Notes under the pieces: generated by a model | What the model was told of the DNA's origin: nothing | What the model saw: only the letters and a program-made list of their open reading frames with translations | Database searches by the model: none | In this document: piece by piece, positions 216-24,335 of the stretch | Position numbering within the stretch: position 1 is the first letter of the stretch | Layout: each line of letters starts with the position of its first letter | Position numbers and translations under genes: made by a program | DNA from: Leptospirales bacterium | GTDB taxonomy: Bacteria > Spirochaetota > Leptospiria > Turneriellales > JAOUFE01 | DNA length: 64,000 bases | Direction of reading: 5' to 3' | Assembly: GCA_040326155.1 (NCBI GenBank) | Contig: JBEQLE010000005.1 | Coordinates: forward strand, 27,041 to 91,040

Positions 216-1343
216 ATGGGAGAAGCATCATTATCACAAGATGAAATAGACGCACTATTAATGGGGGCAGAGGATGTTGACGCGCCCGCTGCGCCGGAAT
301 TTCCAGAACCAGCGCCTGCTAGTTCGGGGGGCGGTTCGAGTGCGGCTTTAGGTGGTGTCTTTAACGACGCTATGGCTACGGCGGCAAATTCAGCTACCTC
401 ATTAATAACTAAGAATGTCGAGATTGCTAATGTCGAAATCGAACCTAGCGATACCGGCGCAATGTCCAGGTCAACAATACCTGGTTCCGTGGTTATTTCC
501 ATTACAATGGGGGCCAGTAATAGTACTTTTACTATTGAGGCCGAAGCAGCCAAGAAAATATCAATGCTCATGATGGGCGCCGATATGCCGCCGGCTGAAC
601 TTGATGAAGCGTATTTATCTACACTGGGAGAGCTTGCGAACACGATCGCGTCTTCTATGTCGAACAGTCTGGGAGGCAAGTTTAAAGACGACTTGCAACC
701 CGGAGTTCCCGATATAAAGGTTTATAACAGCGAGGCAGACCTACCGCCTTTTGCCGGTAGTAATATTACAAAGTTTACATATGACTTGAAAATTGAAGGG
801 GAGACCCCGACAAAACTTGTTCATTACATTGATGCGCAAAGTACCGATAAGTGGGCTTCAGCCATAGCCGGACCTGCGGCAGCGCCCATGGCTCCCCCCA
901 TGAATCTTGGACAACCCCAGGCGCAACCACAGGCGGCTCCACAGCAGCAGGCATTTGGTGGTATGATGGGCGGAGCGCCTCAAGCACAATCCATGGGTGA
1001 TGTAGCGATTAATCCGGTGAATTTTCCAAGCCTCAGCGCCGGGGGACCGGCTATGGCAGCGGGAAGCGGTCAGATTCCATCGAATATCGATCTTTTGATG
1101 GATGTTCAGATGGTTCTTACCGTAGAGCTGGGCAGAACGAAAAAGTATGTTAAAGATATTCTGGGTCTTGGTGAGGGTTCGATTATCGAACTTGATAAAC
1201 TGGCCGGTGAACCGGTTGACCTTTTGGTCAATGGGAAACTGATCGCGAAAGGCGAAGTTGTGGTAATTGACGAAAACTTCGGTGTTCGGGTAACCGACAT
1301 TGTAGGACCTGCCGAACGATTAGCTCGAATGACATCGGGTTAA
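216..1343 (+). CDS. fliY: Flagellar motor switch protein FliY/FliN (CheC-like + SpoA domain)
   Basis: N-terminal LSQDEIDALL CheY-binding peptide, middle CheC-like region (LGELANT), C-terminal FliN domain (LMDVQMVLTVELGRT...GEVVVIDENFGVRVTDI). Confidence 0.92.
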   Translation: MGEASLSQDEIDALLMGAEDVDAPAAPEFPEPAPASSGGGSSAALGGVFNDAMATAANSATSLITKNVEIANVEIEPSDTGAMSRSTIPGSVVISITMGASNSTFTIEAEAAKKISMLMMGADMPPAELDEAYLSTLGELANTIASSMSNSLGGKFKDDLQPGVPDIKVYNSEADLPPFAGSNITKFTYDLKIEGETPTKLVHYIDAQSTDKWASAIAGPAAAPMAPPMNLGQPQAQPQAAPQQQAFGGMMGGAPQAQSMGDVAINPVNFPSLSAGGPAMAAGSGQIPSNIDLLMDVQMVLTVELGRTKKYVKDILGLGEGSIIELDKLAGEPVDLLVNGKLIAKGEVVVIDENFGVRVTDIVGPAERLARMTSG

Positions 1344-1351
1344 TGAGTTTA

Positions 1352-1894
1352 TTACCGAAGGGTAGTTGCAGATACTTCGTTAGAAAATTCAGACAATGTA
1401 TCAAACTGGGAGTGGGCTTTTATTTTAAAATAATAGGTCACTCCTGTCTCAAAAGGGACGTAGTACACAACGGTGGAACCATCGATTGCTTGTGTTACTC
1501 CCATATAATCATATAGAGTAACGGAAACAGTGTTTGTCAGGTCGTAATCGGCGCTGGAGTGAACAAAGGTTGGCACGGAGCCGTCATAATTATAGGCTTT
1601 GAGGTTTAAATTCCCCCCGCCATCTCCGCTGGAATGACGTGAAATATACAAATTGTAACCGTCAAAAGTATCTTCTTTATTTTGAACATTATATTCAACT
1701 TTAAACTTTTGTCCAGATAAGGCGGTAACGGCCAGGTCGACCGGCCTTTCAAGAAATTCTTGTTCGTTATAAGAGAGGTTCAAAACGCATCCGCCGGAAG
1801 TTACCAATAACAAAGGTAACCAAAGCAGTAATATTTGTTTTAAAGAACGTCTCACAAAATAAAAATACGCACGAGGTTTCAAAGCGTCAATCAA
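1352..1894 (-). CDS. Putative lipoprotein with fibronectin type III-like domain
   Basis: Hydrophobic stretch ending LLVTSGGC (lipobox-like). FDGYNLY and GVTYYFKIKAHS...SEFSNEVSATT resemble FN3 strands. Start uncertain. Confidence 0.6.
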   Translation of the reverse strand: MIDALKPRAYFYFVRRSLKQILLLWLPLLLVTSGGCVLNLSYNEQEFLERPVDLAVTALSGQKFKVEYNVQNKEDTFDGYNLYISRHSSGDGGGNLNLKAYNYDGSVPTFVHSSADYDLTNTVSVTLYDYMGVTQAIDGSTVVYYVPFETGVTYYFKIKAHSQFDTLSEFSNEVSATTLR

Positions 1895-1911
1895 AATATT
1901 GTAAAGTTACT

Positions 1912-3531
1912 TCAATACCTTTCAGTAGAGCGAATTCGTATTATTCGGACTTTGGCGCGAATAATAAAAAGGGATGAACCGCCAATGGAATGGTTCAGGT
2001 ATCTTTGAGGGTTTTTTAAGTAGTCGTTTATATCGATTGTTAAATATTTCGAGGTGTCATTGTATTGTAACACCATTCCAAAACCGGAATCGGTAAGAAA
2101 GGGCATTCCTTTTTGACCAGGTAACAAATAGAGCATAAAGTAATATGTTTTCTCTTTTTCTAAAATCAGTTTGCCCGATCTGTCAAAAATTTGTGAGCGC
2201 GGCAGGGTAATCCAGAAAGGTTTTCCGTCGATGTCGAGCAGAACCCTTACGGAATTTTCTTCGGAGGTTGGCGTGGCATTTGAAAATATGGGTTCTAGAG
2301 AGTAGTGCGCCAGCGCCGTGGGTCTATATTTTGTTATAACTTTTAAACCCGAAAAAGTTTCGTAGAGTTCAGTCGCATTTTCAGGGGTTACGGAGATGGT
2401 CCCGTTTTTAGAAATATTTAATTTTTTGGCAGTTTTGAAATCATCTATGGAATTTTGGTACAGGTCATCTCCATTTAAAAATAGAAAAAACTGATGACCG
2501 CTGGAAAGCCCGACTTTTTGTCTGTAAATAATATTGGCATAAGAAATACCCATTCTGGAACTTTTCTCGGCTGCTGCATTTTTCCAGAATACTCTTTCGC
2601 TCGGACTCATGCGGGGGCTTCCAATAATATGAACATGATGCTCTTGAGCAAGTATTCGCAGTTTTCCGCGAACCCGTTGCCGCGAATTGTCGCTACGTGG
2701 AGCTCCCGATACAACTAAAAGAATAACCGATTTTTTTTCAGATTTTTCATCGGGTACTATGTTTTTAAGTAGTGTATAATATAAGTTGTCGTCTTTATCA
2801 TTTCCTTTGCAGGGGATGTTTTGAACATAATCTATAATTTTTAATTTATCGTGGCTTACACCGGAAGTTTCCACATGGTTGTAACCGTTCACCGATATAA
2901 CTGAACTTTTACCTGCCGGGTAAAGTCGAAGGGCTTTCGATAGCGGACCTAATTCGGCGAATGATCTTCCTCTGGCGTCAATGGCAATTGTTAATGGTAT
3001 ATCGAATCCGCGAGAGGAGGCTGCGAATTTTACAAAAAACGAAGATTGAAAACGAATTCTGGCATACCTGCCTAGAAGTTCCCAGGCGTTGTATCCTTTT
3101 TCTTGAATTTCGTCGGTTAATAGTCCCGAGTGCGAGTAATAAATTGTGCCAGTAATAAAAAAAGATTTATCAGAGCCCGTAATTTCCGTTATCAATAAAT
3201 TATCAACATCTAGTTTTTGCGCGACGGTTTTTAACTGCCCGAGGCTGAGTCCATGGTTGGGGTGTATGCCGAGCTCACGAAAAACTTTTTCAACTTTTTG
3301 CGGGGCTATAATATTATTTACTTTGCCAGCTTTCAGGTAGAGATAAACGGTGCGGGCAAGTTCCCAGGGGGTTAATCGGTTGTCGATTGGTTCGGCCCGG
3401 TTTCCTGTTTGCAGGTGGGACGAATTGATCTGTTTTATTTTAACGGGTAATACTGCGTAAGTTGACGAATAAATGGCGGTCGAAAAAAAAAATAATCCAG
3501 CCAGGGTAAGTATACTGCGAATCGCTTTCAT
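1912..3531 (-). CDS. Exported hypothetical protein (TolB-N/CsgG-like N-terminus, degenerate vWA-like middle)
   Basis: Signal peptide MKAIRSILTLAGLFFFSTAIYS (likely start 3531). AQKLDVDNLLITEI segment, and IAIDARGRS / ILLVVSGAP resembling MIDAS positions. Confidence 0.5.
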   Translation of the reverse strand: MKAIRSILTLAGLFFFSTAIYSSTYAVLPVKIKQINSSHLQTGNRAEPIDNRLTPWELARTVYLYLKAGKVNNIIAPQKVEKVFRELGIHPNHGLSLGQLKTVAQKLDVDNLLITEITGSDKSFFITGTIYYSHSGLLTDEIQEKGYNAWELLGRYARIRFQSSFFVKFAASSRGFDIPLTIAIDARGRSFAELGPLSKALRLYPAGKSSVISVNGYNHVETSGVSHDKLKIIDYVQNIPCKGNDKDDNLYYTLLKNIVPDEKSEKKSVILLVVSGAPRSDNSRQRVRGKLRILAQEHHVHIIGSPRMSPSERVFWKNAAAEKSSRMGISYANIIYRQKVGLSSGHQFFLFLNGDDLYQNSIDDFKTAKKLNISKNGTISVTPENATELYETFSGLKVITKYRPTALAHYSLEPIFSNATPTSEENSVRVLLDIDGKPFWITLPRSQIFDRSGKLILEKEKTYYFMLYLLPGQKGMPFLTDSGFGMVLQYNDTSKYLTIDINDYLKNPQRYLNHSIGGSSLFIIRAKVRIIRIRSTERY

Positions 3532-3550
3532 GGATGGTGATTTTTCGAGT

Positions 3551-5035
3551 TTAATTTTCAACGTCAATGACTTTAAATTCAGTCCTGCGGTTTAAGCGGT
3601 TGGCTTTCGGTTCTTTATTGTTTATAACGGGCCGTGTTTCTCCGGCTCCTTCAATTTTAAGTTTGTTTGTAACCCCTTTGTCCACTAAATATTTTTTCAC
3701 CGAAGAGGCCCGTTTTTGTGATAGTTTTAAATTAAATTCCTCTTTGCCGATTAAGTCGGTGTGTCCGATAATTTTCAATTTCATCCCTTGGTGTTTTTTT
3801 AAATATGCCGCCAATCGATCAAGATAAACGTAAGACTCTTCTTGTATCTGGTCTGAATTGTGGTCAAAGTGTATCGACTGTATTGTGAAGCTACGATTTT
3901 TTTCGATGGGTTGTAATACAATGGGGAAAACCCCATCTCGGTAATCAACAGCGAGTACTTTTTTGTAATAGGGTAGATAACCCTCTTTTTCAATAAAAAT
4001 ATCAATATATTCAGGTCGGTGATCCACTTTAAGCATGAGCTTTCCATCTTTGTCAGAAGTTTTGGTGGTTTCAAGGGTGGGCGCAGAGGGTTTCGGGATT
4101 CTAAATTTTACATCTACCGAAAGATTTTTTTTTGTACTTATATCCTTAATCGTAAAACGTAAGAAAATATCATCGGACACTGGTTCTGAAAGAATATCAA
4201 AATGCAATTTTTTACTTTCGCTTTCATGGGTTCTGCTGTAGAAGAGCCGGTCATTGTAGATCGAGAAATAGGTTTCAGCCTGGTCGGTATTGATGGGGGG
4301 GCCAAGGTTGACAGGCAGCCCGAACTCTCCTTCGCGATGAGATACATAATAAATATCAAAGCTGCCCTCTCCTTCGGGTCGGTTGGAAGAAAAGTAGAAC
4401 CCCTGGTCATTTTCATCGGGTATAAGACTAATTTCAATGTCGGGTGAGTTTATTGGTTCAGGAAACTCAGTTGCTTCTTCGAAACTGCCATTTACCATAT
4501 TTGCATACATAAGTTGTGCATTCTGTATGTGCCCGAATTCATATCTGCTGAAATAGACAATTTTACCATCATGGCTGAGGGAGGGAGCTTTTTCATGGTA
4601 GGCTGTATTTACTTTGCCCGGAATTTTTACGGGTCTGGTCCATTGGCCTTTTACTAAGTGAGACCAATATAGATCGTGGGAGACCCGTATCTGACCTTTC
4701 GAGTTTTTCGCCATTTCGGCGCTTCCGTCTCGGTCTGAGGTAAAGATGATTACTTTTCCGTTTCGTGCGATGTAAGGGGCTTCGTCATTATAAGGTGAAT
4801 TAAGTACCTGGAACTTGGCAGGTTTTGCCCATTCATCATTTTCAAACTGAGAAATATAGATATTATTATAGCGATCTTTTTCTCTTTTGCTGTAAAAAAC
4901 CATGAAGGAACCATCCGGTGCGACTGAAGGCGCCAGTTCATGGTATGAGGTATTTATATTTTTCATGTTCTCGCCAAAGGCGGGGTGGGCGACCAGGAAT
5001 ATAAATAAGGCAGAGATAAAGAGATAGATTTTCAT
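3551..5035 (-). CDS. PD40 (TolB-like) repeat + OmpA C-terminal peptidoglycan-binding protein
   Basis: Signal peptide, repeated 'NT.YHE.APS.S.DG' PD40 repeats, OmpA_C motifs (IHFDHNS, IIGHTD, NLKLSQKRA, NRRTEF). Confidence 0.9.
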   Translation of the reverse strand: MKIYLFISALFIFLVAHPAFGENMKNINTSYHELAPSVAPDGSFMVFYSKREKDRYNNIYISQFENDEWAKPAKFQVLNSPYNDEAPYIARNGKVIIFTSDRDGSAEMAKNSKGQIRVSHDLYWSHLVKGQWTRPVKIPGKVNTAYHEKAPSLSHDGKIVYFSRYEFGHIQNAQLMYANMVNGSFEEATEFPEPINSPDIEISLIPDENDQGFYFSSNRPEGEGSFDIYYVSHREGEFGLPVNLGPPINTDQAETYFSIYNDRLFYSRTHESESKKLHFDILSEPVSDDIFLRFTIKDISTKKNLSVDVKFRIPKPSAPTLETTKTSDKDGKLMLKVDHRPEYIDIFIEKEGYLPYYKKVLAVDYRDGVFPIVLQPIEKNRSFTIQSIHFDHNSDQIQEESYVYLDRLAAYLKKHQGMKLKIIGHTDLIGKEEFNLKLSQKRASSVKKYLVDKGVTNKLKIEGAGETRPVINNKEPKANRLNRRTEFKVIDVEN

Positions 5036-5093
5036 ATCTTATTATCGGTGAACTTCGGAATCTGGGTTAGTGAAATTTTTTATAAAGATGAGT

Positions 5094-5117
5094 TAAGGAA
5101 GGCAGGAAGGGCAAGAA
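5094..5117 (+). repeat. Purine-rich dispersed repeat, copy 1 (taaggaaggcaggaagggcaagaa)
   Basis: Shares the AAGGAARGCAGGAA core with five other intergenic copies and a shortened core with a sixth. Confidence 0.8.
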
Positions 5118-5244
5118 TAATAAAAAACATAATTCCTTGAAATTTTATGAGAATACTATTCTTTTGCATAAAAATCCTGTTATGTGAAATGCCTAATGTT
5201 ATTTTCTCACCCGAATTCAACCACATTTTGGGGCTAACTCCGCT

Positions 5245-5506
5245 TAACCGCAAGAACTCGCAAAAAACTGGCAAGTCAATACGGCTCGCTTCATGCGTTG
5301 GTGAACAACGCCGCAGCGACCTGGGTTTCGCCGGCCACGAGTCACCCGACTGCGGCCCCCAAACCCCCGCCTGGCTCGTCACCTCGCAAGAGGTCACCGA
5401 CATAACCGGAGCCAACTTTGAATACATGCGCCAGGTCCTCTGCCAATTTATTCGCGATAATGAACAAATCAAACGTTTGTATGAAGTTTGTAAGGGATAT
5501 GTTTAA
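5245..5506 (+). pseudogene. Remnant of a short-chain dehydrogenase/reductase (SDR)
   Basis: One frame gives GSLHALVNNAA (SDR NNAG motif). It is joined in another frame to an SDR-like C-terminus SDLGFAGHESPDCGPQTPAWLVTSQEVTDITGANFE...IKRLYEVC. The GxxxGxG and YxxxK motifs are missing. Confidence 0.65.
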
Positions 5507-5525
5507 TTACGCGCGATAAATAAAT

Positions 5526-8500
5526 TTATTTTATTTCTTTATGAGTTTTCACCCGATTTCTACCTTTATGTTTTGCCGCATAAAGGGCCTTATCTGCTCT
5601 TTCAATTAATAAACCAGGTGTTTCCGTTGAGGTAGGTTTAATCGTGGCTACACCTTCACTCACCGTAACCACTTTTAAAATTTCAGAAAAATCATGTTTG
5701 AGGGCTAAACTTTCAATATGCCTTTGGATGTTTTCAGCAATAACGAAAGCTCCTTGAGCCGTAGTATTCGGAAGAATAACGGCAAACTCTTCTCCTCCGT
5801 ATCTTGCGGCAATATCCGTTGGCCGGTTTAATTGACCACGAATTGCATCAGCCACAATTTTAATACATTCATCGCCTTTTTGATGCCCATATCCATCATT
5901 GTATTTTTTAAAAAAGTCGATATCAATCATAATTAGCGATAATAAATTATGATCGCGAATACCATTGTCCCATTCTGCGTTAATAAATTCATCGAAATGC
6001 CTTCTATTGGCCAGACCTGTTAGAGCGTCTACTACTGCCAGTCGCTGTAGTATCCGGTTGGCATCAACAATCTCTTGCATAGCAACTTTCAATTTTTCTT
6101 TTTCTTCTTCAATTATTCTGGTTCGGTCTATTACTTTATCTTCAAGAGTTTCATAATGCCTTGCGTTTTCTATTGAAATAGCTGCTTGCGTAGAAATCAT
6201 TTCAAGCATTTCAATACGGCTTTCAGTAAAAGCGTCAGAAGTTAAATTGTTTTCAAGATAAATTATTCCGGTGACTTCCCCTTTGTATCTAACGGGGGTA
6301 CACAAAACAGATTTTATTTGATTTTTCTTGAAGTAAGAATCATTCTCAAACCTGTGGTCAATACCATCACCAGTCAGCATAACAACCTCCGAAGTTCTAG
6401 AAACAAATTGAACCATTGAAAATGGAATCCTGTCGTAACCTTCAGCCGGAGTTCTTTCAAATTTTAATAAAGAATTCTCTTCTATTGAATCTTCCGCTTC
6501 AATCCATAATTGGTTATTTTCATTGGATATAAATATTCCACGCTGGGCCCCCGCATTTTCAATAATAATATGCATTAATTTTTTTAACAAGGAATCGAAT
6601 TTAATCTCGCTGGAAATAGCAACGGTTGCTTTAACAACGGTATCAATATCAAGGAGTGATTTTGTAGTAGAAGAGATCTCTACCTTGCCAGGCACACTGG
6701 TGTTAGAAAAATTTTCGGGTTTCAGTAAAGTTTTATTCGTAGTTCGATTGCTTAAATCCACACTCCCAGCGAAGGCCTGTAGATTGGAAAATTCCGCTTC
6801 TGTTTTTTCAGCTATTGCCTTTGCCCCCCATGCACTGTACCCTGAGATGGCATCTCGAAGAAACGGCCAGGCCAGTTTCTTATTGTTTTCTTTAACAAGC
6901 AATCGTCCTGCCAGCTCATTGGCAATGCCGCTTTTTTGAATGAATCCGTTTTTAAGAGCGCTTTGCGAGGCCTCTTCATAAAGTCTAATTGCACTCAGCA
7001 CTTTTCCTTTATGTTTTTCAAGCTCAGCAGATACGAGCAAGTATTGATAGCCAAAATTTACCGGGTTCTTATCTGCCCATGATTTTATTTTTTTTTGAAT
7101 CTTGCGAATTTCTTTAAGGTATTTTTTCCGGGGTTTTTGATTATAAAGAGCTGATAAAATAAGTGCAGTAATGAAATAATGCTCAGTCGTATGAAGCATA
7201 GCAAGAGAATATTTCAAATATTTTTTAGACTCCAGCGAAATGTTATATGCTTCCGAGAAATTTCCCCATAAGTAAAGAGAGAACATCTTATTGACATAGT
7301 AAAAATGGGAAAAGTGAAGGGCTGTAAAAGTATTAATTTCTTTAATATACTCTTCTTCAACCAGGTTGTTATCCGAAAATGAATCCCGGCTGGATGTTAA
7401 TCCGTTTAAATTAGCAATAGTGCTGAGAACCGATTGGATTGTTCCCACTGCCTCTTTGTTGGCAATTCGGTGCATAAATTCCTGGAAATTTTCTGCAATT
7501 TTTTTAACTTCATCGAGGTTGACTCCCCTTATAAACTGGCTCATCACCAGAGTAGATACGGCACAGGAAACATGGAAAAAATCTCCCGTATGTAAGCCAC
7601 TTTCATAAGATGCCTTATAGTATTCCTCTGTTTCCGTAACCGGCCGCAACCAGAAATTTGTAAAATAGGCGGAAACAAAATTTATTTCGCTACGCTGATT
7701 TTTGTAATCAAATTTTTCGTTCATGGACAGAGCGAGGCGGCCAAACTCGTAACCACTTTGGTGGTTACCCAGTACTCCCCCTCTAAATATCCCCCCATAA
7801 ACCAGATACGATACAGCATTATCTTTAATGTTCCCGTATTTAAGACTTAAAGTAACTCCTTTAATTGCGTTATGAATGCAAAGTTCAGGCCGAATTTGGT
7901 ACGCAGCTTTAAGTAAAGCTGCAATAAGTTTCATGGCATAGGCCTTATCTTCATTTTCACACAAAGACAGGTTAACAAGGTCCTCAATTTTTTTCCCCGC
8001 CATTTTAATTTTAAGTTTAATAAAGTCCTTAATTAACAGGGGAGGGATAAAAGCTGAAGGGAGTTTTACACCATAAAGCCGGACAGCCTTTCTCCCGGTT
8101 TGGTAGGCAGTTTTAAAGTCACCAAGGTTTGTATAAAAATGAATCATCTTTTCATATACGGCTGATTTTTGATCCCTGTTTGATGCAATTTCCAGCGTTT
8201 CATTAAATATTTTTTTAGCATTTTCATGATTACCGCACAAATGTTCAATTTCAGCTAACTCCAGATTCACTTTATGCCAGAAATCGTTGTGTGTTTTAAA
8301 TAAATCTTCTTTCAATAAATTCCGCGCTGTTTGAATATACCGAAGAGCCGGTTCATAAGCGATAGATTCTTTTGCCCGAATCGCTGCCTGCAAATTGAGT
8401 TTTGCCAATTCCAGCTTTTCCTTTGCATCAACAATTAAATCCAAGGCAAGATCGTAATGATTGACAATTTCAAAAATATATTCCGATAAATGCTTTTCCT

Positions 8501-10643
8501 TTACTTCGGCTAAGCGAAGCTTCCCTATTTTCAAATGAAACACAGATTTCTCACCGGAACTGAGCATATCGTAAGCAGCTTGTTGAACCCTGTCATGAAG
8601 GAACCTGTACTCAACGTCAAAAGCAATATCTGTCTCCGGGTTATCACTGATATATTTATAATTATCTCCTATCGGCTGAATTAGATCGCTTGAGACAGCC
8701 GGGGTAAGTTGTGTAATTACTTCAGCATGCGGTAATTGCAGTAAAAATAAAAGTTCTTTATGGGTAAATTTATTGCCAATGCAAGCTGCTCTTTTTATCA
8801 ACTGCTGGCTCGGCTCGGGAAGTTTTTTAATATTTTTTATCATTAAATCGATAACATTATCAGAATCTTCCAGGTTTTGAATACTTTGAATATCCCAGGT
8901 CCAGACTTTTTCAGCAACGCTAAACATGGCCAATTTAGACTGGTAAATATCAATTAACAATTGATTAATAAAAAGAGGGTTACCATTGGTTTTTTTATGT
9001 ATAACTTCGGCTAATGATAAGGAGTTCTCTTCGGTGCACAAAAACGTATCACAAATTATCTCTTGAACCGTGGACAATGAAAATGGCAACAACAATAATT
9101 CATTAACAAGATTATTGGCCTTTTTAAATCGGGCAAGCATCACTAAAAGCGGGTGCGACAAATCCACTTCGTTGCTGCGGTATGCTCCAATGACAAATAA
9201 ATGAGTTATCTCCGTATCGGTACAAATTATCTCGATTAAATTCAAGGAAGCTGCATCTGCCCAATGAAGGTCGTCTAAAAACATTGCCAAAGGATGTTCT
9301 TTCGTTCCAAAGACCTGAACGAACTTTTTAAAATAAAAATTAAACATGTTTTGTGACTCTAGAGCACCGAGCGTCGGAACCTCCGGTTGCTCTCCGATAA
9401 TAATTTCCAGCTGCGGAAGAACATCGATTATGATTTGACCGCTTCCCTCCAGAGCCTCCAGAATTTTAAGTTTCCAGATTTCAATTTGACTATCACTCTG
9501 TGTAAGAATCTGGCGTATTAAATCCTGAAAAGCCTGAATAACCGCAGAGTATGGTATATTTCTTTTATATTGCTCAAATTTACCATTTATAAAATGGCCG
9601 GTGGATTCAGTAATCGGTTTGTATATTTCATGAATCAAGGATGATTTCCCGACCCCTGAATAACCTGAAACCAACATGATTCCGGTTTGGCCATTGCAAA
9701 CGCTCTCATACGCAGATAGAAGTTTCTGGATTTCGCTTTCACGACCATAAAGCTTATCCGGTATTTTAAATATATCCGGGGTATCGTTCATTCCCGCACG
9801 GAAGTTTTCTAAAGATCGATTAGTATTTAGGCTGGTTAATATTTTTTCAAAGTCCGATTTAACGGTAAAGGCGCTTTTATAACGGTCTTCGGCATTTTTT
9901 GCCATCATTTTCAAAACGACATCCGATATTGCCTTTGGGATTGTATCATAGGTTTCATACAATTGTTTTGGCGCTTTTGCAATATGCATATGAACCAGTT
10001 CCATGTTGTCGTTTGCAATAAAAGGTCTTTTTCTTGAAAAAAGCTCATAAAATGTAACACCAAGAGAATAAATATCCGACTGATAGCGAATGGGTCGGTT
10101 CATTCTACCAGTTTGTTCGGGTGAAATGTAAGCAAGTGTGCCTTCAAGGTGGTCCGGGTTCGTTAGCTCCTGGTTTTCATGGGTAAGCCTGGTGGCAATT
10201 TCAAAATCAATAACTTTTATAACCCCGGTTTCCGGATTAAATAAAATATTATTTGGATTGATGTCTTTATGAATAATTCCACTATTATGAATCTCTGCAA
10301 GAATGCCTGCGATTACAGCTGCAAGCTGATAACGATCCATTAAAGAAACCGTGTTATCCTCTATAATATTGTTTAAGGGCTCTCCTTTAAAATCTTCCAT
10401 TACCAATATTGGATAATTGTCCAATTTCTCGTAAGCTAAAATCTTGATAACACCATTTATATTTAGATCGTTTAATAGTTTATATTCGTGTTTTAAACGG
10501 GCAACTTCAATAGGCTGTGGAAACTCAGAATTCATTGCACGAATAATGACAGTTTCCCCGGTAGTTACTTTTTTTGCGCGGATAATACTGGAATGCTTTC
10601 CGGTAAACAAGGTTTCCATTCGTTTGTATTTTTTATTTTGCAT
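5526..10643 (-). CDS. Ser/Thr kinase-like + AAA ATPase + GAF + GGDEF diguanylate cyclase (HstK-like architecture)
   Basis: HKDINPNN, GTLAYISPEQTGR, Walker A GYSGVGKS, Walker B LDDLHWAD, FLHDRVQQAAY, GAF (IIYLENN), C-terminal RPTD I-site and RYGGEEF. Confidence 0.93.
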   Translation of the reverse strand: MQNKKYKRMETLFTGKHSSIIRAKKVTTGETVIIRAMNSEFPQPIEVARLKHEYKLLNDLNINGVIKILAYEKLDNYPILVMEDFKGEPLNNIIEDNTVSLMDRYQLAAVIAGILAEIHNSGIIHKDINPNNILFNPETGVIKVIDFEIATRLTHENQELTNPDHLEGTLAYISPEQTGRMNRPIRYQSDIYSLGVTFYELFSRKRPFIANDNMELVHMHIAKAPKQLYETYDTIPKAISDVVLKMMAKNAEDRYKSAFTVKSDFEKILTSLNTNRSLENFRAGMNDTPDIFKIPDKLYGRESEIQKLLSAYESVCNGQTGIMLVSGYSGVGKSSLIHEIYKPITESTGHFINGKFEQYKRNIPYSAVIQAFQDLIRQILTQSDSQIEIWKLKILEALEGSGQIIIDVLPQLEIIIGEQPEVPTLGALESQNMFNFYFKKFVQVFGTKEHPLAMFLDDLHWADAASLNLIEIICTDTEITHLFVIGAYRSNEVDLSHPLLVMLARFKKANNLVNELLLLPFSLSTVQEIICDTFLCTEENSLSLAEVIHKKTNGNPLFINQLLIDIYQSKLAMFSVAEKVWTWDIQSIQNLEDSDNVIDLMIKNIKKLPEPSQQLIKRAACIGNKFTHKELLFLLQLPHAEVITQLTPAVSSDLIQPIGDNYKYISDNPETDIAFDVEYRFLHDRVQQAAYDMLSSGEKSVFHLKIGKLRLAEVKEKHLSEYIFEIVNHYDLALDLIVDAKEKLELAKLNLQAAIRAKESIAYEPALRYIQTARNLLKEDLFKTHNDFWHKVNLELAEIEHLCGNHENAKKIFNETLEIASNRDQKSAVYEKMIHFYTNLGDFKTAYQTGRKAVRLYGVKLPSAFIPPLLIKDFIKLKIKMAGKKIEDLVNLSLCENEDKAYAMKLIAALLKAAYQIRPELCIHNAIKGVTLSLKYGNIKDNAVSYLVYGGIFRGGVLGNHQSGYEFGRLALSMNEKFDYKNQRSEINFVSAYFTNFWLRPVTETEEYYKASYESGLHTGDFFHVSCAVSTLVMSQFIRGVNLDEVKKIAENFQEFMHRIANKEAVGTIQSVLSTIANLNGLTSSRDSFSDNNLVEEEYIKEINTFTALHFSHFYYVNKMFSLYLWGNFSEAYNISLESKKYLKYSLAMLHTTEHYFITALILSALYNQKPRKKYLKEIRKIQKKIKSWADKNPVNFGYQYLLVSAELEKHKGKVLSAIRLYEEASQSALKNGFIQKSGIANELAGRLLVKENNKKLAWPFLRDAISGYSAWGAKAIAEKTEAEFSNLQAFAGSVDLSNRTTNKTLLKPENFSNTSVPGKVEISSTTKSLLDIDTVVKATVAISSEIKFDSLLKKLMHIIIENAGAQRGIFISNENNQLWIEAEDSIEENSLLKFERTPAEGYDRIPFSMVQFVSRTSEVVMLTGDGIDHRFENDSYFKKNQIKSVLCTPVRYKGEVTGIIYLENNLTSDAFTESRIEMLEMISTQAAISIENARHYETLEDKVIDRTRIIEEEKEKLKVAMQEIVDANRILQRLAVVDALTGLANRRHFDEFINAEWDNGIRDHNLLSLIMIDIDFFKKYNDGYGHQKGDECIKIVADAIRGQLNRPTDIAARYGGEEFAVILPNTTAQGAFVIAENIQRHIESLALKHDFSEILKVVTVSEGVATIKPTSTETPGLLIERADKALYAAKHKGRNRVKTHKEIK

Positions 10644-10853
10644 ATTATAGCTACCAAAATCGATTGAATACTAGTATAGATTAAACCGATAATCCGGCAA
10701 TAAAAATAATACGTATAATGTCGCTGAGGGATACATTTACCAAATTCGTGAATATACGATAAAAAAATACCTGACTTGTGCAACGATTATTGCATAATCT
10801 AACAATAGAGTAGAAAACGGCACAATAGTTTAAAAATTAAAAAGGAGAGTACA

Positions 10854-10953
10854 ATGATAAATAGTGTTTTAAGAACGATGCAAACGGAGGATTGGGCAGC
10901 GGGTTAAGATGGAAAATTATTGGAATTATATTCACCTTCCTGATTTTAAATGA
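10854..10953 (+). pseudogene. Probable truncated GNAT acetyltransferase remnant
   Basis: Strong RBS AAAGGAG then MINSVLRTMQTEDWAAG* (10854-10907). Removing one G gives EDWAAVK, matching the 'IR.M..EDW.AV..IY' GNAT N-terminus. A terminator follows. Confidence 0.45.
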
Positions 10954-10978
10954 GCCCTCCATGGCTCATTTAATTTTT
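10946..10978 (+). terminator. Rho-independent terminator
   Basis: ttaaatgagcc-ctccat-ggctcatttaa stem followed by a T-run. Confidence 0.7.
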
Positions 10979-11224
10979 ACTACAGATTTCATCCGATAAC
11001 AGATTTCAATCTGCCAATTGGCCGGGGCCAACTGGCCAACGGCTCGCGACCTGTTCGGTCGTTCGGGTCTCGCAAATAGCTCGACCACATTTTGGACCTG
11101 AAGATTTAGGTCGGATTCACGGGGTCAATGAACGCAGAGATTCGAAAAGCTCTCACATCGTGTGCTCACAAAATTATGCTTAATGAAATATGTTTGACTT
11201 TTCAATTGTATTATATAAATTTCT

Positions 11225-11280
11225 ATATAATACCTGATACAACCGAATTAGATGGAAAACTATTTAATTATATGTTATAT
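11225..11280 (+). mobile_element. Degenerate attC-like site ending in GTTATAT
   Basis: ATATAAT-acctg-ATACAACCGAA...TTA-N7-GTTATAT, 56 bp, with R''/L''/L'/R'-like spacing. Confidence 0.4.
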
Positions 11281-11327
11281 ATAAACAGATACGTGGCATG
11301 CAATAGTGAAGTAGAAAAAGGATTGTT

Positions 11328-12740
11328 ATGAAAAAATTATCAATTGGATTTAAAAATATTGCTTTAGTTAAAGAGATTGAATCTCCTGAAAACCCAGGTG
11401 GATTAGAAAAAAGAGTTGCTTTAACACCAGAAGATGTTGGGCAATTAACAGCCGTCGGGGTAAAAGTATTTGTTGAATATGGTGCAGGTCTAGGTGTAAA
11501 TTTTGAAGATGAAGAATATCTTAAAAATGGTGCTGTGATGCAAAAAGCAGATGAGATATACAAAGATAAAGATATGATTATTAAATTTAAAGGCCCATCT
11601 TTGCAGTCTATATCCAAGATGAAAAAAGGTTGTACTCTGTTTTGTATGGCACATTTTCACTCATTCCCGGATAGAGCAAAAATCCTTGAGAAGTTTCAAA
11701 TAAATGTTATAGCTATGGAAGAGATTCTTGAATCCCCAAAAGTACAAACCGATGAGCAGATATTAGCACGGGTTGCGATGGCCGAAGCATTAAAAAGTTT
11801 TATTGATAATGAAACAATTGGAAATCTAAAAATATTTGTTATAGGCCGAAGTGAAAGACTAGCGGGCGCTATTAGAAGGGCAGGAAATCGCAATCCCCAT
11901 TCACTAAATATTTTACATAAAGATGTAAAATTTGAAGAGTTAAAAGAAACAGGTAGAGAAACTCTGTATGTTTATGATAGTGAAGGTTTTAATGATTCAA
12001 ACAGACTAATTGAAAAATTAAAACAAAATAATTCATATATTTTTGATCTTCATAAATTTAAAGTAGAAAGTGGGGATGTGGCAATTGCTAATTATAGAAA
12101 AACACATACGCCTTTTGAATTTGGTTTGCGAAGAATTCAGTGTCTTCATGAAACAGGGCAAGCAGGTGCAAGGTATGGGATTAAACTACTTAAAGAAAAT
12201 AAACCTCAAATAGATATCTGTGAAGCAAAAGTTGTTGTATTGGGTTATGGTAATGTAGCAAGGGGTGCAATGCATGAAATATATAATCAAGGTTTTAAAA
12301 ATATCAATATTTTAGGTCGTACCCAAACAGCTAAAGATAAAATAGATTTTTGGTTAAAAGATGTTGATTTGGTTGTAAATGGTGCAGAACTACCACGAGA
12401 ACAAAGAGGTATCACTTATCTTGTAAGTAATGACCATCTAAAAAGAGTAATTCCCAAAGGCTCAGTTGTGATTGACCTTGTAGGTGGAAGTGAGACAAAC
12501 AGAAGCGCTGTTGAATCCGTACTTAGCTGCACATTTTTAACGGAGCCTCATTTTATTAAAGAAGAAGTTACAGTTTCAGCATTGTGGGGTTGGCCAATGC
12601 TGGGAATGATGAGAGAGAGTGCTATAAAATATTCAAGTCAAATTACAGATGTTCTAATTAGAAGAGAAAAATTAATCGAAGGGATAGATACTTTAACAGC
12701 TGGCGTAAAACGAGCATTGGTTTGCGGACCATTTGAATAG
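11328..12740 (+). CDS. Alanine dehydrogenase/PNT-superfamily NAD(P)-dependent oxidoreductase with central insertion
   Basis: EKRVALTPEDV, VFVEYGAG and IIKFKGP (AlaDH_PNT_N), plus C-terminal Rossmann VVVLGYGNVARGA and SVVIDL. Visibly AT-richer than neighbours. Confidence 0.8.
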   Translation: MKKLSIGFKNIALVKEIESPENPGGLEKRVALTPEDVGQLTAVGVKVFVEYGAGLGVNFEDEEYLKNGAVMQKADEIYKDKDMIIKFKGPSLQSISKMKKGCTLFCMAHFHSFPDRAKILEKFQINVIAMEEILESPKVQTDEQILARVAMAEALKSFIDNETIGNLKIFVIGRSERLAGAIRRAGNRNPHSLNILHKDVKFEELKETGRETLYVYDSEGFNDSNRLIEKLKQNNSYIFDLHKFKVESGDVAIANYRKTHTPFEFGLRRIQCLHETGQAGARYGIKLLKENKPQIDICEAKVVVLGYGNVARGAMHEIYNQGFKNINILGRTQTAKDKIDFWLKDVDLVVNGAELPREQRGITYLVSNDHLKRVIPKGSVVIDLVGGSETNRSAVESVLSCTFLTEPHFIKEEVTVSALWGWPMLGMMRESAIKYSSQITDVLIRREKLIEGIDTLTAGVKRALVCGPFE

Positions 12741-12745
12741 GCAAT

Positions 12746-12775
12746 ATATAACAAGTGCTTCAAATTGGATTCGTG
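12746..12775 (+). mobile_element. 5' half of an attC-like site
   Basis: ATATAAC-aagtg-CTTCAAATTGGATTCG, 5 bp after the stop codon. ATATAAC is the exact reverse complement of GTTATAT at 11274-11280. Confidence 0.5.
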
Positions 12776-12784
12776 GCTACAAAC

Positions 12785-12990
12785 CTAAGACTTCAGCAGA
12801 GGTAAAACGACAACCATCAGAACGCTCACGAAGTTCACGGCCCAATGTGCGATGACAGCGGTAACAGACGGCGGATGCGCAAATACACCATTAATAATGC
12901 GACTCCAGTAAGAAGACTTGATCCAAATCGGTAGACCGCCCAAACCGAGAAGCAAGTCCCGTCGAAGCTTTAGGCGCTGGAAACCGATCT
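12785..12990 (-). pseudogene. Remnant of CPBP (CAAX/Abi) family intramembrane metalloprotease
   Basis: Minus strand gives IGFQRLKLRRDLLLGLGG, then (frame change) LLTGVALLMVYLRIRRLLPL, then (frameshift) VIAHWAVNFVSVL...*. The HxxxN motif is present and the EExxxR core is absent. Confidence 0.65.
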
Positions 12991-13002
12991 TCCCTCTCTC
13001 TC

Positions 13003-13028
13003 TTTTCCTGCACTTCCTGCCTTCCTTA
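13003..13028 (-). repeat. Purine-rich dispersed repeat, copy 2
   Basis: Reverse complement is taaggaaggcaggaagtgcaggaaaa. Confidence 0.8.
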
Positions 13029-13066
13029 CTAAAATTCTTTATTCGTTTTCCTGAAGATGATACTTC

Positions 13067-13169
13067 AAAATAAAAAACAAATCTCTACCGCGGTCGAATT
13101 CCGAACTATGTACAGTTAACTGAATTTACATTTACACTTCGAAAAAACAGGTCTGGTATACGGCCATAT
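13067..13169. repeat. ~100-bp junction element, copy A
   Basis: Core gcggtcgaattccgaactatgtacag (13090-13115) matches 47814-47839 at 24/26. Flanks and the distal cggccatat are also shared. Confidence 0.75.
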
Positions 13170-13268
13170 TTTCATATAAAGACTGGAAAAGATTTTTTCC
13201 TTGTTGTGTTGTTTCCAATTTTGACCATTGGGTTACGTGGATTTTATTTTTATGATTCGAGGAAACGA

Positions 13269-21772: not shown

Positions 21773-22189
21773 TCAACGTTTCGGCTTGGCGATATTCAGG
21801 TAACCTTCCGAAGCGTATTTTATTATCTGCTTATCAAAGGTTAATAAAGTAGCATGTAAAACACGAGCAGTAGCAACAATCATTCGGTCCGCAGGGTCAC
21901 CATGAAAATTACCCGGCAAAACAGTACTCTCATAAGCAATTTCGGGGGAGAGCGGATAAACACTCATTCCAGGAGCCGATGAGGCTTGTTCAATCCAGTC
22001 CAGTGTATTTTCAGATAATTTTATACGCTCTTTCGATACAAGCATTGCCAATTCCCAGATACTAATTGCTGGAATAAAAATAGTATGGTCTTTTATGCTT
22101 TTTTGAATTATTTGCAGAAAACCAGATTTCTTAATTTTTTCATCGCCATTGATCGTCCATATCCAGGTATGAGTATCTAAAACAATCAT
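21773..22189 (-). CDS. vapC: PIN-domain VapC toxin
   Basis: IVLDTHTWIW, ISIWEL, FHGDPADRMIVATA, LLTFD. Confidence 0.93.
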   Translation of the reverse strand: MIVLDTHTWIWTINGDEKIKKSGFLQIIQKSIKDHTIFIPAISIWELAMLVSKERIKLSENTLDWIEQASSAPGMSVYPLSPEIAYESTVLPGNFHGDPADRMIVATARVLHATLLTFDKQIIKYASEGYLNIAKPKR

Positions 22190-22195
22190 TGTTAT

Positions 22196-22423
22196 TTATT
22201 GATCGGCGTCCCAATTTTCTTCGAGAGGTTTTGTAATATCTCCGTATATGGCAACTGTATCTTTCATATAACCAAAGATCGATTTACTGGGTTTATTACT
22301 ATAGGGGACAAGTTTAGCTACCGGCTTACCATGTTTAGTAATAACCACTTCCTGGTGATATGCGTTTACATCATCCATAATTTTCAAGCATTTGCTTTTA
22401 AACTCTGCAGCGGGCATATTCAT
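22196..22423 (-). CDS. Phd/YefM family antitoxin
   Basis: AAEFKSKCLKIMDDV...VVITKHGKPVAKLVP, directly upstream of vapC. Confidence 0.93.
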   Translation of the reverse strand: MNMPAAEFKSKCLKIMDDVNAYHQEVVITKHGKPVAKLVPYSNKPSKSIFGYMKDTVAIYGDITKPLEENWDADQ

Positions 22424-22438
22424 TGTTGTCTCCTCTCT

Positions 22439-22487
22439 ATAGTCATATCTACATAGTCATAATACTATATTCAATTTTTTTCGTCAA
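22439..22487 (-). promoter_or_regulatory. Sigma70-type promoter and probable operator repeats for phd-vapC
   Basis: Minus strand TTGACG (22482-87)-17 bp-TATTAT (22459-64). Direct repeat ATGACTAT twice (22439-46, 22453-60) overlapping the -10/start region. Confidence 0.7.
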
Positions 22488-22495
22488 GTATTTTT

Positions 22496-22759
22496 TCACC
22501 ATTCCATTAAAGCATCTTCTTTGTTTAGGCGTGCGCTGTCTCTCGCTAATGCTAAAACTTCATCATCATCGGTTAGTATTCCACTAGATTCAGCAAAAGG
22601 CAATGTCATATTTCGTAGTTGCCTGAATTTATAAATTGAAATATATCTACGCAGTGAATTACGAACCAGGTCGCTCACCGGTTTGTGCTCTGCCTTACTC
22701 AACTCTTCTAATTTATTGCGCATTTCATCTGGTATGCGAACTGTAATTGTTTGACTCAC
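22496..22759 (-). CDS. CopG/ribbon-helix-helix antitoxin with aberrant C-terminus (probable fusion to a deleted PIN toxin)
   Basis: TITVRIPDEMRNKLEELS...VSDLVRNSLRRY...LPFAESSGILTD then DDEVLALA. GTG start with GAGG RBS. Confidence 0.75.
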   Translation of the reverse strand: MSQTITVRIPDEMRNKLEELSKAEHKPVSDLVRNSLRRYISIYKFRQLRNMTLPFAESSGILTDDDEVLALARDSARLNKEDALMEW

Positions 22760-22970
22760 TTTGTAACCTCGATTGTAAGACAATGTAGCACATCAGTACA
22801 GTTTTGTCAGATATTTTTACAATGGATCGCCGAAAATTATGGCATTAGAATAGATGCAAATGCTCTTTAAATATTACTTGTAATATTGAAAAGATGTAGG
22901 TGAACACACAAGACCAGAGGACTTCTCTTTACGCCTTATATTTATTAAAAAATATGACGACATAAATATT

Positions 22971-23831
22971 ATGCGAGCAGTTGATTTTTTTAAAACACCG
23001 GAAGGTAAAAAGTATTTAGCTGAGTTTCAAGACGAAATTTTTGTTATTAAATATGGGGGAGCCGCGCTCGAAACCGGTTCCATGAAACGTTTTTTTCTGG
23101 AAGATGTGGCGCAAATGCAAAAGCACGGGCTTCGCATTATTCTTGTTCATGGCGGGGGAAAAATGCTCTCGGCAAAAATGAAAGAAGAAAACATTGAGGT
23201 AGAGTTTGTCAATGGTATTCGAAAAACCACGGAGCGAATCGCCGAACTTGCCTTAGAGGTTTTTACATTGATTAATATAGAAATTTGTGAAATACTCAAA
23301 GAGTTTGGTATTAACCCATTAAGCTTATCAGAAGGAAAAACAGTAGGCGCGAAACTAATCGATTCTGAGAATCCTGATAATCGTGTAGGGGACGCTGTAA
23401 AAATTGATACCGGACGGGTGGACATTTCGTCATTGCCTGTACTTTCTTCCATAGGCCGAAGCGTGGGTCCGCCGGTAGATACACTAGAAGAAGGTAGTCT
23501 GCTCAATATAAACGCCGACATGCTTGCTCTTTCTACTGCGTTAGCCATCAAAGCTAGAAAATTGATTTTTATTTCGGATGTAAATGGCATTTATCTGGAC
23601 CATGAAGACAAGGATACGAAATTAAGCCGTATAACAGAAAGTGAAATTAACAACCTTGTCGAAAAAGGGGTTCTACATGGTGGCATGCGGTTGAAGGTGG
23701 AAATGGCTCTGAGGGCTCTGAAAAACGGGGTACGTAAAGTACATTTTTTAGATGGCCGAATTGAACACTCCATAATGAAAGAAATATTTACAGACGAAGG
23801 GATTGGAACCGAGATTGTGCATGACGAGTGA
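22971..23831 (+). CDS. argB: Acetylglutamate kinase
   Basis: VIKYGGAA, LVHGGG, NINAD, GGMRLKV, EIFTDEGIGT. Confidence 0.95.
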   Translation: MRAVDFFKTPEGKKYLAEFQDEIFVIKYGGAALETGSMKRFFLEDVAQMQKHGLRIILVHGGGKMLSAKMKEENIEVEFVNGIRKTTERIAELALEVFTLINIEICEILKEFGINPLSLSEGKTVGAKLIDSENPDNRVGDAVKIDTGRVDISSLPVLSSIGRSVGPPVDTLEEGSLLNINADMLALSTALAIKARKLIFISDVNGIYLDHEDKDTKLSRITESEINNLVEKGVLHGGMRLKVEMALRALKNGVRKVHFLDGRIEHSIMKEIFTDEGIGTEIVHDE

Positions 23832-24291: not shown

Positions 24292-24335
24292 TATGGTTGG
24301 GCAAATGAACCGATACCTTTAAACAGGGTCGAGTT

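Follow-up and report, generated by a model that had tools for sequence, protein, structure and literature searches.

Purine-rich inverted repeats as probable arms of a lineage-expanded family of small palindromic intergenic elements

The purine-rich motif that recurs in the window (the whole stretch of DNA analysed, 64,000 nucleotides) is probably the terminal arm of small palindromic intergenic repeats that have expanded in one lineage; the copies at 5094 and 13028 would then be independent halves, and the 8 kb between them would not be cargo. As proposed here, the family comprises small (about 40–280 bp), ORF-less, imperfectly palindromic repeats in intergenic gaps. Each close pair (at 40.2 kb and at 56.5 kb) would be the two arms of a single element in a convergent spacer, and the copies at 5094, 13028 and 47770 would be half elements.

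Motif copies in the window

Exact matches to AAGGAARGCAGGAA lie at 5095–5108(+), 13014–13027(−), 40229–40242(+), 40380–40393(−), 47771–47784(+), and 56698–56711(−), with a further copy carrying one mismatch at 56505–56518(+). All seven intergenic copies listed in the preliminary description were thereby recovered at their sites, far above chance: with up to two mismatches AAGGAARGCAGGAA matches 11 times in the window against 1.26 expected, a count reached in 0 of 100 shuffles. Two of these 11 matches (36125 and 40543) are intragenic and look like chance, and two others (40245 and 40360) are sub-repeats within the arms of the 40.2-kb element.

The two close pairs, previously described as facing each other some 170–210 bp apart, measure 165 bp (40229–40393) and 207 bp (56505–56711) between outer ends, and both lie between convergent genes, directly 3′ of the stop codons. 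The first belongs to a complete hairpin element (40211–40416, no strand assigned) that fills its convergent spacer; its 32-nt arms (40229–40260 and 40358–40393) are 72% complementary, and its predicted fold has a ΔG of −62.2 kcal/mol (z −6.2). The second (56490–56735, no strand assigned) is also complete with inverted arms, and consists of a short purine arm, a GACAGGATTTACAGGATTAACATGATT 9-mer module, a centre with its own 16-nt hairpin, and a reverse arm; its predicted fold is weaker (ΔG −54.9, z −2.7).

The remaining three copies are partnerless. At 5078–5125(+) a purine/T outer module and a AAGGAAGGCAGGAA core, with no partner within 350 nt, lie 59 bp from the start codon of the OmpA/PD40 gene and are directed away from it. 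At 12995–13045(−) an outer module, core, and GTGCAGGAAAAGAGAGAG tail, likewise with no partner within 350 nt, abut at their inner end a truncated CPBP-type pseudogene. The third arm (47755–47800(+)) is followed by the R2 repeat and lies where a RES-Xre toxin-antitoxin insertion ends on its right side; examined as a structured RNA, R2 yielded no consensus fold (−2.8 kcal/mol, with 0 compensatory pairs).

A repeat family expanded in one genome

The host genome (G000) contains 69 exact arm copies (39 forward, 30 reverse) and none of the reversed-pattern control, and the 30 genomes of the same order hold 0–1 exact copies each. With at most one mismatch, 111 copies fall in 62 intergenic intervals representing all four gene arrangements, with 13 more in crude ORFs. 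The GACAGGATT module is present in 70 copies, with a few in three other genomes of the phylum. These counts derive from a draft assembly that is 94.7% complete and lacks rRNA genes, and drafts often leave repeats unassembled. Rfam searches at the gathering threshold and at E values up to 1 returned only two sub-threshold chance matches; the family, which is without an Rfam match, appears to be undescribed so far and expanded in one lineage.

Arms are modular. The outermost module is a purine/T tract (AAAGAAAGArTTTTAT), the second is a purine core of 8–9-nt units (AAGGAAGG, CAGGAAnnn), and often there is a third, an array of 9-nt units (GACAGGATT, TACAGGATT, AACATGATT). Between the arms lies one of a few centre types shared among copies, or a loop of only 4 nt, as in the minimal arm–4 nt–arm hairpin at C84:26199. 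Outward, conservation fades at about −17, leaving a fuzzy boundary, and the sequence following the arm is ATAAAAyTCTTTCTTT.

At short range the copies are arranged as a palindromic unit would have them. Among 49 multi-copy clusters (spans 39–275 bp), 27 run in the order + to − and two in the reverse order. Of 97 outermost arms, 56 are followed by a partner no more than 350 nt ahead, 10 have one behind, and 41 are partnerless; here we relied on the contrast between ahead and behind, as the reversed pyrimidine motif used as a control matched ahead of 49 of 97 arms and is a poor control because of its low complexity. Single arms have their outer end nearer to the gene, and so are directed away from it, in 24 of 30 cases. 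Similarity between the two arms of an element does not exceed that between arms drawn from different elements (mean scores 9.7 and 12.0, permutation p 0.97), which fits conservation of sequence rather than of pairing.

This conservation of sequence, together with the regular recurrence of the units, would also fit arrays of binding sites for a nucleoid or regulatory DNA-binding protein, the palindromic layout then reflecting dimer binding rather than a hairpin. Units such as CAGGAAnnn and nACAGGATT recur every 8–9 nt, arrays of at least three units number 41 against 2 in the reversed-sequence control, and the loci are regionally clustered, with 35 of the 52 contigs of at least 30 kb lacking any locus against 24.2 expected under a Poisson model. 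However, no candidate binding protein emerged, identical arms are present in unrelated genomes whose GC content differs widely, and arrays elsewhere enclose small selfish-looking genes; we regard a binding-site function as highly improbable.

The interval between 5094 and 13028

The arms at 5095(+) and 13027(−) span everything from the start of the OmpA/PD40 gene (5035) to proA (13206/13266), as the preliminary description had it, and the absence of a transposase or integrase from this interval was borne out by Pfam searches. In the model of that description the two arms are what remains on either side of a single element or slot after its centre took up some 8 kb by recombination in trans. 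We find this quite improbable; most likely there is no 8-kb repeat-delimited island, and the 5094 and 13028 copies are separate broken copies.

Several observations do lend the capture model appeal. The arms face inward and enclose a stretch between two blocks conserved in relatives, and the non-syntenic stretch (approximately 5036–13192, from the OmpA block to the proA block) coincides almost exactly with the arm-enclosed interval. The inner half is missing from both arms, each of which borders a gene remnant, hairpin elements of similar design can carry a gene in the loop, a toxin-antitoxin pair adjoins another half arm (47770), and variable boundaries coincide with two of the four arm loci within the stretch collinear with G001, counting 47770 at the edge of the toxin-antitoxin insertion.

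Genome-wide orientation, proposed earlier as a check on this model, argues against it. Neighbouring arms more than 450 bp apart (n = 93) are arranged −+ in 33, −− in 25, ++ in 21, and +− in 14 cases, so the inward arrangement that a filled slot would have is the rarest. Two neighbouring single arms are expected to face inward one time in four, and do so by default if each is directed away from its own neighbouring gene. The prevalence of single arms directed away from the nearest gene suffices for the geometry of 5094 and 13028, and partnerless arms are common (41 of 97). Ranked by similarity among arms of different elements, the two fall at the 47th percentile, as a random choice of arms might; this comparison was dropped as a means of pairing them, being uninformative because true partners do not resemble each other more than unrelated arms do. 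Filled loops found elsewhere hold one small gene, with 376–545 nt between the arms. Of the earlier slot model the 8-kb filled slot thus finds no support, while the close pairs stand as ORF-less hairpins that encode no transposase, and similarly built elements hold a small gene elsewhere.

The content of the interval does not suggest a cargo island either. It has no recombinase by Pfam, and its largest gene (5526–10643(−)) encodes a 1705-residue Ser/Thr kinase-AAA_16-TPR-GAF-GGDEF protein (Pfam) of a native paralogue family, with a 57% paralogue at C149:986–5566 and further full- and part-length paralogues in the host genome. An AlaDh/PNT-like oxidoreductase of 470 residues (11328–12740(+), Pfam) has an orthologue in none of five relatives. 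Of the gene remnants reported earlier, the CPBP-type one holds: the pseudogene (12785–12995(−)), a paralogue of C22:15564–16376 (41 nt, 95%), begins where the 13027 arm ends on its inner side, with nothing between, and has lost about 105 N-terminal codons as well as suffering an internal deletion and a frameshift. The SDR remnant is a weak, GC-rich possible fragment (5238–5405(+); PF00106, E 0.041, below the cut-off), and the GNAT remnant has no Pfam match. Beside the 13028 arm, GATCGGTTTCC was considered as the start of a 9-mer module and rejected, being coding sequence of the CPBP-type pseudogene. Other inward pairs (1.4–4 kb apart) enclose S5/L18, RluA, U32 peptidase, patatin, PilZ, HicB, and a metallo-β-lactamase-fold protein; the content of these long-range pairs is ordinary and includes housekeeping genes. 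Inward pairing over kilobases is under-represented rather than above chance (14 of 93), and the genes so enclosed are ordinary or, for the kinase, native paralogues rather than variable or foreign.

Comparison with relatives also speaks against capture. In G001 the OmpA block is on one contig and the proA block on another, in both cases well away from a contig end, which implies that an empty site is absent from that genome. Homology to G001 and to the metagenome contig L028 stops at approximately 13193, about 150 bp outside the right arm. Neither an empty allele nor an insertion polymorphism was found among the sequences compared, in which no near relative spans the site: the nearest genomes share only 65–67% proA identity, and a proA scan of the genome contigs gave Chloroflexi-type matches only (41–47% identity); L028 is the one closer contig, is 2.3 kb long, and ends short of the arm's counterpart.

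In the independent-halves reading, which we prefer, the 5094 and 13028 copies would each adjoin a conserved gene and be directed away from it, most likely independently. The inner half of the 13028 copy may have been lost in a rearrangement, the same event truncating the CPBP-type gene, and the 8 kb between the arms would be a lineage-specific junction of two conserved gene blocks.

Relation to genes and 3′-end function

Among the 58 arm-bearing intervals for which both flanking genes are known, 16 are convergent spacers, compared with 281 of 1838 in the background, and for 30 of the 45 arms with an upstream gene on the same strand, the arm starts 1–54 nt past the stop codon. Elements in convergent spacers take up all the sequence from one stop codon to the other, which random insertion would seldom produce and which may indicate a 3′-end role. 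The GHMP-kinase and ccmF genes are convergent neighbours in both G001 and G003, where their spacers measure about 88 and 135 bp, versus a 227-bp element-filled spacer in the host genome; we count this element as a probable gain in the host lineage. Near 86.4 kb, the corresponding spacer of G001 has a GC-rich hairpin followed by a T-run where the host genome has the element.

These features, with the strong stem of the 40.2-kb element and the presence of an RNase III gene (rnc), could mean that the elements are mainly working 3′-end signals (two-way terminators or RNA-stabilising and processing hairpins) kept by selection, their shared sequence reflecting a common binding factor rather than mobility. 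Nevertheless, divergent, promoter-side intervals are not depleted (15 of 58 versus 506 of 1838 in the background), the partnerless arms cannot form a stem, and compensatory similarity between the arms of one element is absent. In a terminator scan, 0 of 21 terminator-like sites in 39500–57500 fell at the two window elements, neither of which has the short GC-rich stem directly followed by a U-run of an intrinsic terminator. Furthermore, high-GC contigs of unrelated origin contain the same arm sequences as short hairpins (at 5 and 12 loci), which suggests transfer. A mainly 3′-end function is, in our view, rather unlikely.

Mobility and comparison with known repeats

No transposase was found among 22 ORFs scanned near arms, and we infer from the absence of a transposase in or beside the copies that the family spread by copying in trans. 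In the 94.7%-complete draft of the host genome, DDE_Tnp_1 (PF01609) is represented by two fragments only. The RAYT gene that the preliminary description suggested seeking was not found, PF01797 giving 0 matches in the host genome and the positive control matching in 6 of 14 genomes. Nor was a target-site duplication seen as a direct repeat flanking any of 25 complete elements, the outer boundary being fuzzy.

Compared with MITEs as characterised in two reviews (PMC3184786; PMC10969869), the repeats are similarly small, AT-rich, and non-coding, with inverted terminal arms, no transposase, and many dispersed intergenic copies; they also include sub-families with the same ends and different interiors, confined to a single lineage. 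They differ in that neither a target-site duplication nor a parent insertion sequence with the same ends was found (PF01797 and PF01609 searched). In contrast to MITEs, their arms are arrays of 8–9-nt units in variable number, and they often fill a stop-to-stop spacer.

The REP/BIME sequences of enterobacteria and pseudomonads and the BOX elements of pneumococci are modular mosaics of short extragenic palindromic units, and REP sequences carry a GTAG-type head. The present repeats resemble these in being modular mosaics with a variable number of modules, 3′ of genes with which they would be co-transcribed. However, the GTAG-type head is absent, the arms are much longer and purine-rich, and no RAYT gene was found in the host genome draft. 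REP elements are named in one review (PMC3184786).

The repeats also resemble the intervening sequences (IVS) of 23S rRNA, which occur with or without an S23p four-helix-bundle ORF and have complementary termini with a long stem, low GC content, sporadic distribution, and apparent horizontal spread (PMC4990558), features that find likenesses here. As in IVS-type cassettes, short units repeated in tandem make up the arms, in inverted orientation to each other, and complementary termini with short-unit arms are evident (z −6.2; 41 arrays versus 2), less so in the second window element (z −2.7). Yet the more than 60 loci here are ORF-less and lie between protein genes rather than in rRNA, in a draft without a 23S gene. 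The family may belong to a broader group of hairpin cassettes that share the design of these intervening sequences, and its long stems, when transcribed, would serve as RNase III substrates or as 3′-end hairpins.

Small genes near arms

In related genomes, four-helix-bundle genes lie in the loops of inverted short-unit arrays at three of four loci, and filled loops elsewhere contain one gene of about 120 residues, with 376–450 nt separating the arms. A gene-bearing form with similar arms and CAGGAAT units is found in G109:C174. In the host genome PF05635 (four-helix bundle) has 0 matches; complete elements, at 39–275 bp, are too short for a PF05635 or PF13366 ORF, and no loop holds one. The single GxxExxY gene (PF13366; C126:27683–28072) lies in the densest arm cluster, between two elements whose arms are directed away from it and outside any loop. 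The earlier statement that low-complexity inverted flanks surround GxxExxY and four-helix-bundle genes is sound for the four-helix genes of related genomes and for the flanking of the GxxExxY gene by arms. In the literature searched, such cassettes outside rRNA are not described, and nothing was found on repeats of GxxExxY or four-helix-bundle genes.

These associations raise the unlikely idea that the arms are the ORF-less, multiplied form of cross-phylum hairpin cassettes, of the IVS-like kind that bears four-helix-bundle or GxxExxY genes, copied in trans by the sole GxxExxY PD-(D/E)XK nuclease. Breakage and joining would then favour the centres, so that small genes such as toxin-antitoxin pairs or the nuclease gene lodge there and deletions start there. 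If that were so, the half arms at 5094, 13028, and 47770 would mark real rearrangement junctions. With the 8-kb repeat-delimited island most likely a false lead, a genome in which ORF-less copies are numerous and only one candidate nuclease is present offers a setting for studying how IVS-like cassettes are copied.

A Family of Palindromic Repeats

The purine-rich motif AAGGAARGCAGGAA is a genuine repeat. It matches exactly at window positions 5095(+), 13014–13027(−), 40229(+), 40380–40393(−), 47771(+) and 56698–56711(−), with a copy bearing one mismatch at 56505(+), and at up to two mismatches the window contains 11 matches against 1.26 expected, a count reached by no shuffle. The draft genome to which the window belongs (G000; 171 contigs, 4.26 Mb, 39.6% GC) contains 69 exact copies (39 forward, 30 reverse) and none of a reversed-pattern control. 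The family is restricted in lineage: 30 genomes of the same order have 0 or 1 copy each. With up to one mismatch there are 111 copies in G000, 13 within crude ORFs and the remainder in 62 intergenic intervals.

Anchored alignment of 95 arms (the motif with its adjoining modules) reveals a conserved stretch beginning ∼17 nt upstream, AAAGAAAGArTTTTAT, followed by the core and then by more CAGGAA units spaced 8–9 nt apart. Many arms carry a second array after these units, GACAGGATT-TACAGGATT-AACATGATT (the 9-mer module). This module is present 70 times in G000 and 13 times in one other family of the same order, and a shorter pattern, GACAGGATTWACAGGATT, occurs in 7 of 401 genomes sampled from the phylum, G000 included. 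Matches at up to two mismatches number 253 in G000 and form 164 clusters, 115 with one match and 49 with several; the latter comprise 27 that begin with a + copy and end with a − copy, of which 25 span 39–275 bp, 2 in the opposite order (− to +), 16 of single orientation and 4 mixed. A partner lies within 350 nt ahead of 56 of the 97 outermost arms and behind 10. These asymmetries (27 versus 2, 56 versus 10) indicate that the members of a close inward pair are opposite ends of a single palindromic element. No partner lies ahead of the other 41 outermost arms, including those at 5095, 13027 and 47771.

Complete elements are laid out as arm, centre and reverse arm, with centres of a few types common to several copies; the element at contig C84:26199 is a minimal hairpin (arm-4 nt-arm). 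The 40.2-kb window element folds into a single long stem (−62.2 kcal/mol, z −6.2), and the 56.5-kb element folds less strongly (−54.9, z −2.7). An Rfam search with the repeat gave no match. A RAYT gene, which the preliminary description had suggested seeking, was not found in G000, and DDE transposases are represented by two fragments only; the 23S rRNA gene is absent from the draft.

In the 56.5-kb element, at 56545–56573, TTAACA of the 9-mer module and a TATAAT in the element's centre form a sigma-70-like site (11/12, 17-nt spacing) followed by a 16-nt hairpin; module copies elsewhere have TTGACA or TTTACA variants. Hairpin elements of the 9-mer type occur in tandem at C35:1–260, C98:1–240, C113:7340–7450 and 26160–26270, and C149:21280–21400, with a conserved ∼48-nt linker between them that resembles a back-to-back pair of outer modules. 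Because two of the arrays are found at the ends of contigs, the repeats apparently cause breaks in the assembly. A low-complexity word, CCACGAAGGCACAAAG, lies just beyond several G000 arms (C97:25850, C160:38667, C130:17702, C108:36487) and, in a different genome (locus L072, G109:C174), just beyond the purine arm of a cassette with a four-helix-bundle gene.

Genomic Placement of the Arms

The two close pairs of the window span 165 and 207 bp, lie between convergent genes and begin directly after stop codons. Among the 58 arm-bearing intervals of G000 with both flanking genes known (4 more touch a contig end), the gene arrangement is ++ in 17, convergent (+−) in 16, divergent (−+) in 15 and −− in 10, against 504, 281, 506 and 547, respectively, in background spacers of at least 40 bp. 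Enrichment is mild for convergent spacers, with no depletion of divergent ones. In 30 of 45 cases with an upstream same-strand gene, the core begins 1–54 nt past the stop codon of that gene; the distance from core to gene start is at least 45 nt in 52 of 52, and in convergent spacers the element occupies the entire stop-to-stop gap. Arm loci are clustered, with none on 35 of the 52 contigs of at least 30 kb versus 24.2 expected (Poisson), and contig ends carry arms somewhat more often (10 of 342) than random windows do (33 of 3000).

Comparison with Relatives

The nearest genomes belong to other genera (proA identity 65–67%). Window 13206–59267 is collinear with G001:C44:51934–101152, except for an inverted block at 51373–59267 (counterpart G001:C44:94734–101152); neither end of the inversion has an arm. 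Six genes at 21773–26046 (a PIN-RHH toxin-antitoxin pair, an amino-acid kinase, a deaminase, an amidase and one unknown) are unmatched in the collinear stretch of G001, and their borders lack a purine arm.

For each of the two complete window elements, the corresponding spacer in relatives is conserved and convergent; the one between the GHMP-kinase gene and ccmF measures 227 bp in the window, compared with ∼88 bp (G001) and 135 bp (G003). At 47771, a half arm lies at the right edge of a 1.3-kb insertion (46604–47937) carrying a RES-domain toxin (46635–47093) and an Xre-type antitoxin (47093–47626) between the Mur-ligase and trigger-factor genes, a gap of only ∼55–70 bp in G001. At the left edge of this insertion lies a truncated outer module, AAAGAGTAACCATAAGG, ending in AAGG, which by eye matches the start of the right-edge arm at 18 of 21 positions. 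Two of the four arm loci within the collinear stretch therefore lie at variable boundaries, a hint that agrees with the cargo proposal from a sample far too small to test it.

The 8-kb Interval between OmpA and proA

The inward-facing arms at 5095 and 13027 enclose all the sequence between the OmpA/PD40 gene and proA, and the preliminary description read this interval as a filled slot of which the close pairs were the empty form. To the left, four genes at 216–5035 are collinear with G001:C14 and G002:C65; sequence left of proA finds no match in G001:C44 34000–110000, and the genes upstream of G001 proA are unmatched in the stretches examined upstream of proA in G002 and G003. The stretch from 5036 to ∼13192 thus forms a junction specific to this lineage, with a conserved block on each side, and it coincides with the interval enclosed by the arms. 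The two blocks are adjacent in no relative, and hence there is no empty site for comparison. In L028, a 2.3-kb metagenome contig with a proA 88% identical (81% at the DNA level), homology stops at window 13193, ∼150 bp outside the arm, and no arm lies upstream. L028 (542–597) shares with G000 (C146:17383, C118:28789 and four places on C108) a GC-rich 55-nt repeat of the GGGTGGGCGTTTACGCCCAC hairpin type at 83–92% identity.

As originally noted, the interval has no transposase or integrase by Pfam. A 57% paralogue of its 1705-aa kinase-AAA_16-GAF-GGDEF protein lies on C149, with several further paralogues in G000, and the protein is native in type. The wider family of giant kinase-AAA_16-TPR-GAF-output proteins (window 5526–10643; C149, C66, C11, C84, C5, C110) counts five full-length paralogues and two matched in two parts, with frames of 1700–2100 aa, and has fewer members in related genera. 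Five relatives lack an orthologue of the 470-aa AlaDh/PNT-like protein. Of the three proposed gene remnants, that of the CPBP type is indeed a frame-broken, 5′-truncated paralogue of C22:15564–16376, and its start directly abuts the inner end of the 13027 arm; the SDR match is weak, at E 0.041, and there is no support for the GNAT assignment. The SDR-like frame (5238–5405) lies in a GC-rich patch (∼48% in 300-nt windows versus 39.6% for the genome) and has no paralogue in G000.

A second repeat of ∼110 nt, with core GGTCGnATTCCGAACTA ... TACCTTTACA ... GGCCATAT, has five copies (window 13075–13175 and 47800–47890; C106:12520–12640; C138:33050–33200; C119:13420–13560). Purine arms adjoin three of them, two lie just upstream of proA and the trigger-factor gene, and no consensus RNA structure was obtained for it.

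Neighbouring copies separated by more than 450 bp are oriented −+ in 33 cases, −− in 25, ++ in 21 and inward (+−) in 14. Ten inward pairs are 1.4–8.8 kb apart, and a Pfam scan of the ORFs enclosed by the seven at 1.4–4 kb found ribosomal proteins S5 and L18, an SDR-aldolase fusion, a metallo-β-lactamase-fold protein, U32 peptidase, patatin, PilZ, HicB and RluA, and no recombinase. A lone arm is normally directed away from the nearest gene, which is nearer to the outer than the inner end in 24 of 30 intervals with a single strict copy. Since the nearest gene behind the 5095 arm is OmpA (59 bp) and that behind the 13027 arm is proA, their inward geometry is already given by default. Arms are no more alike within than between elements (mean score 9.7 versus 12.0, permutation p 0.97), and the comparison of 5095 with 13027 falls at the 47th percentile of the between-element scores.

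With inward pairs the rarest orientation, ordinary genes in those scanned and a kinase native in type, the 8-kb interval is, on present evidence, not a filled slot. Most likely, 5095 and 13027 are half elements independent of each other that lie at a lineage-specific junction, where the elements may have had a part in truncating the CPBP-type gene. What survives of the slot proposal concerns the close pairs, which are ORF-less hairpin elements without a transposase of their own and belong to a class whose members elsewhere hold a small gene.

Proposed Kinship with Gene-Bearing Hairpin Cassettes

On IMG/VR contigs with unrelated, mostly high-GC flanks, the purine arm occurs at 5 loci, with arm-loop-reverse-arm hairpins at at least three of them, and the 9-mer module at 12. 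Four-helix-bundle (PF05635) genes are found in all three other genomes with several module copies and are absent from two without the module and from G000. At three of four PF05635 loci, inverted arrays of 26–59 nt (75–91% complementary, 376–450 nt between arms) enclose the gene; one locus has CAGGAAT units and the order outer module then purine arm, as in G000 elements.

The suggested association with GxxExxY genes is also seen in G000: its single PF13366 gene, in the arm-densest 1-kb window (5 arms), is one of just 8 among 3519 crude genes that are flanked on each side by strict arms. These arms are complementary to each other (17 nt, 82%) and point away, so that the gene sits between elements and not in a loop.

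Intervening sequences have complementary termini, are excised by RNase III and are distributed sporadically, with apparent horizontal movement (PMC4990558); an RNase III gene is present in G000. The repeat family itself is undescribed, and its kind, interspersed palindromic repeats, is already known. We infer that the G000 elements are akin to cassettes of the intervening-sequence type, and that they may be copied in trans and processed at the RNA level.
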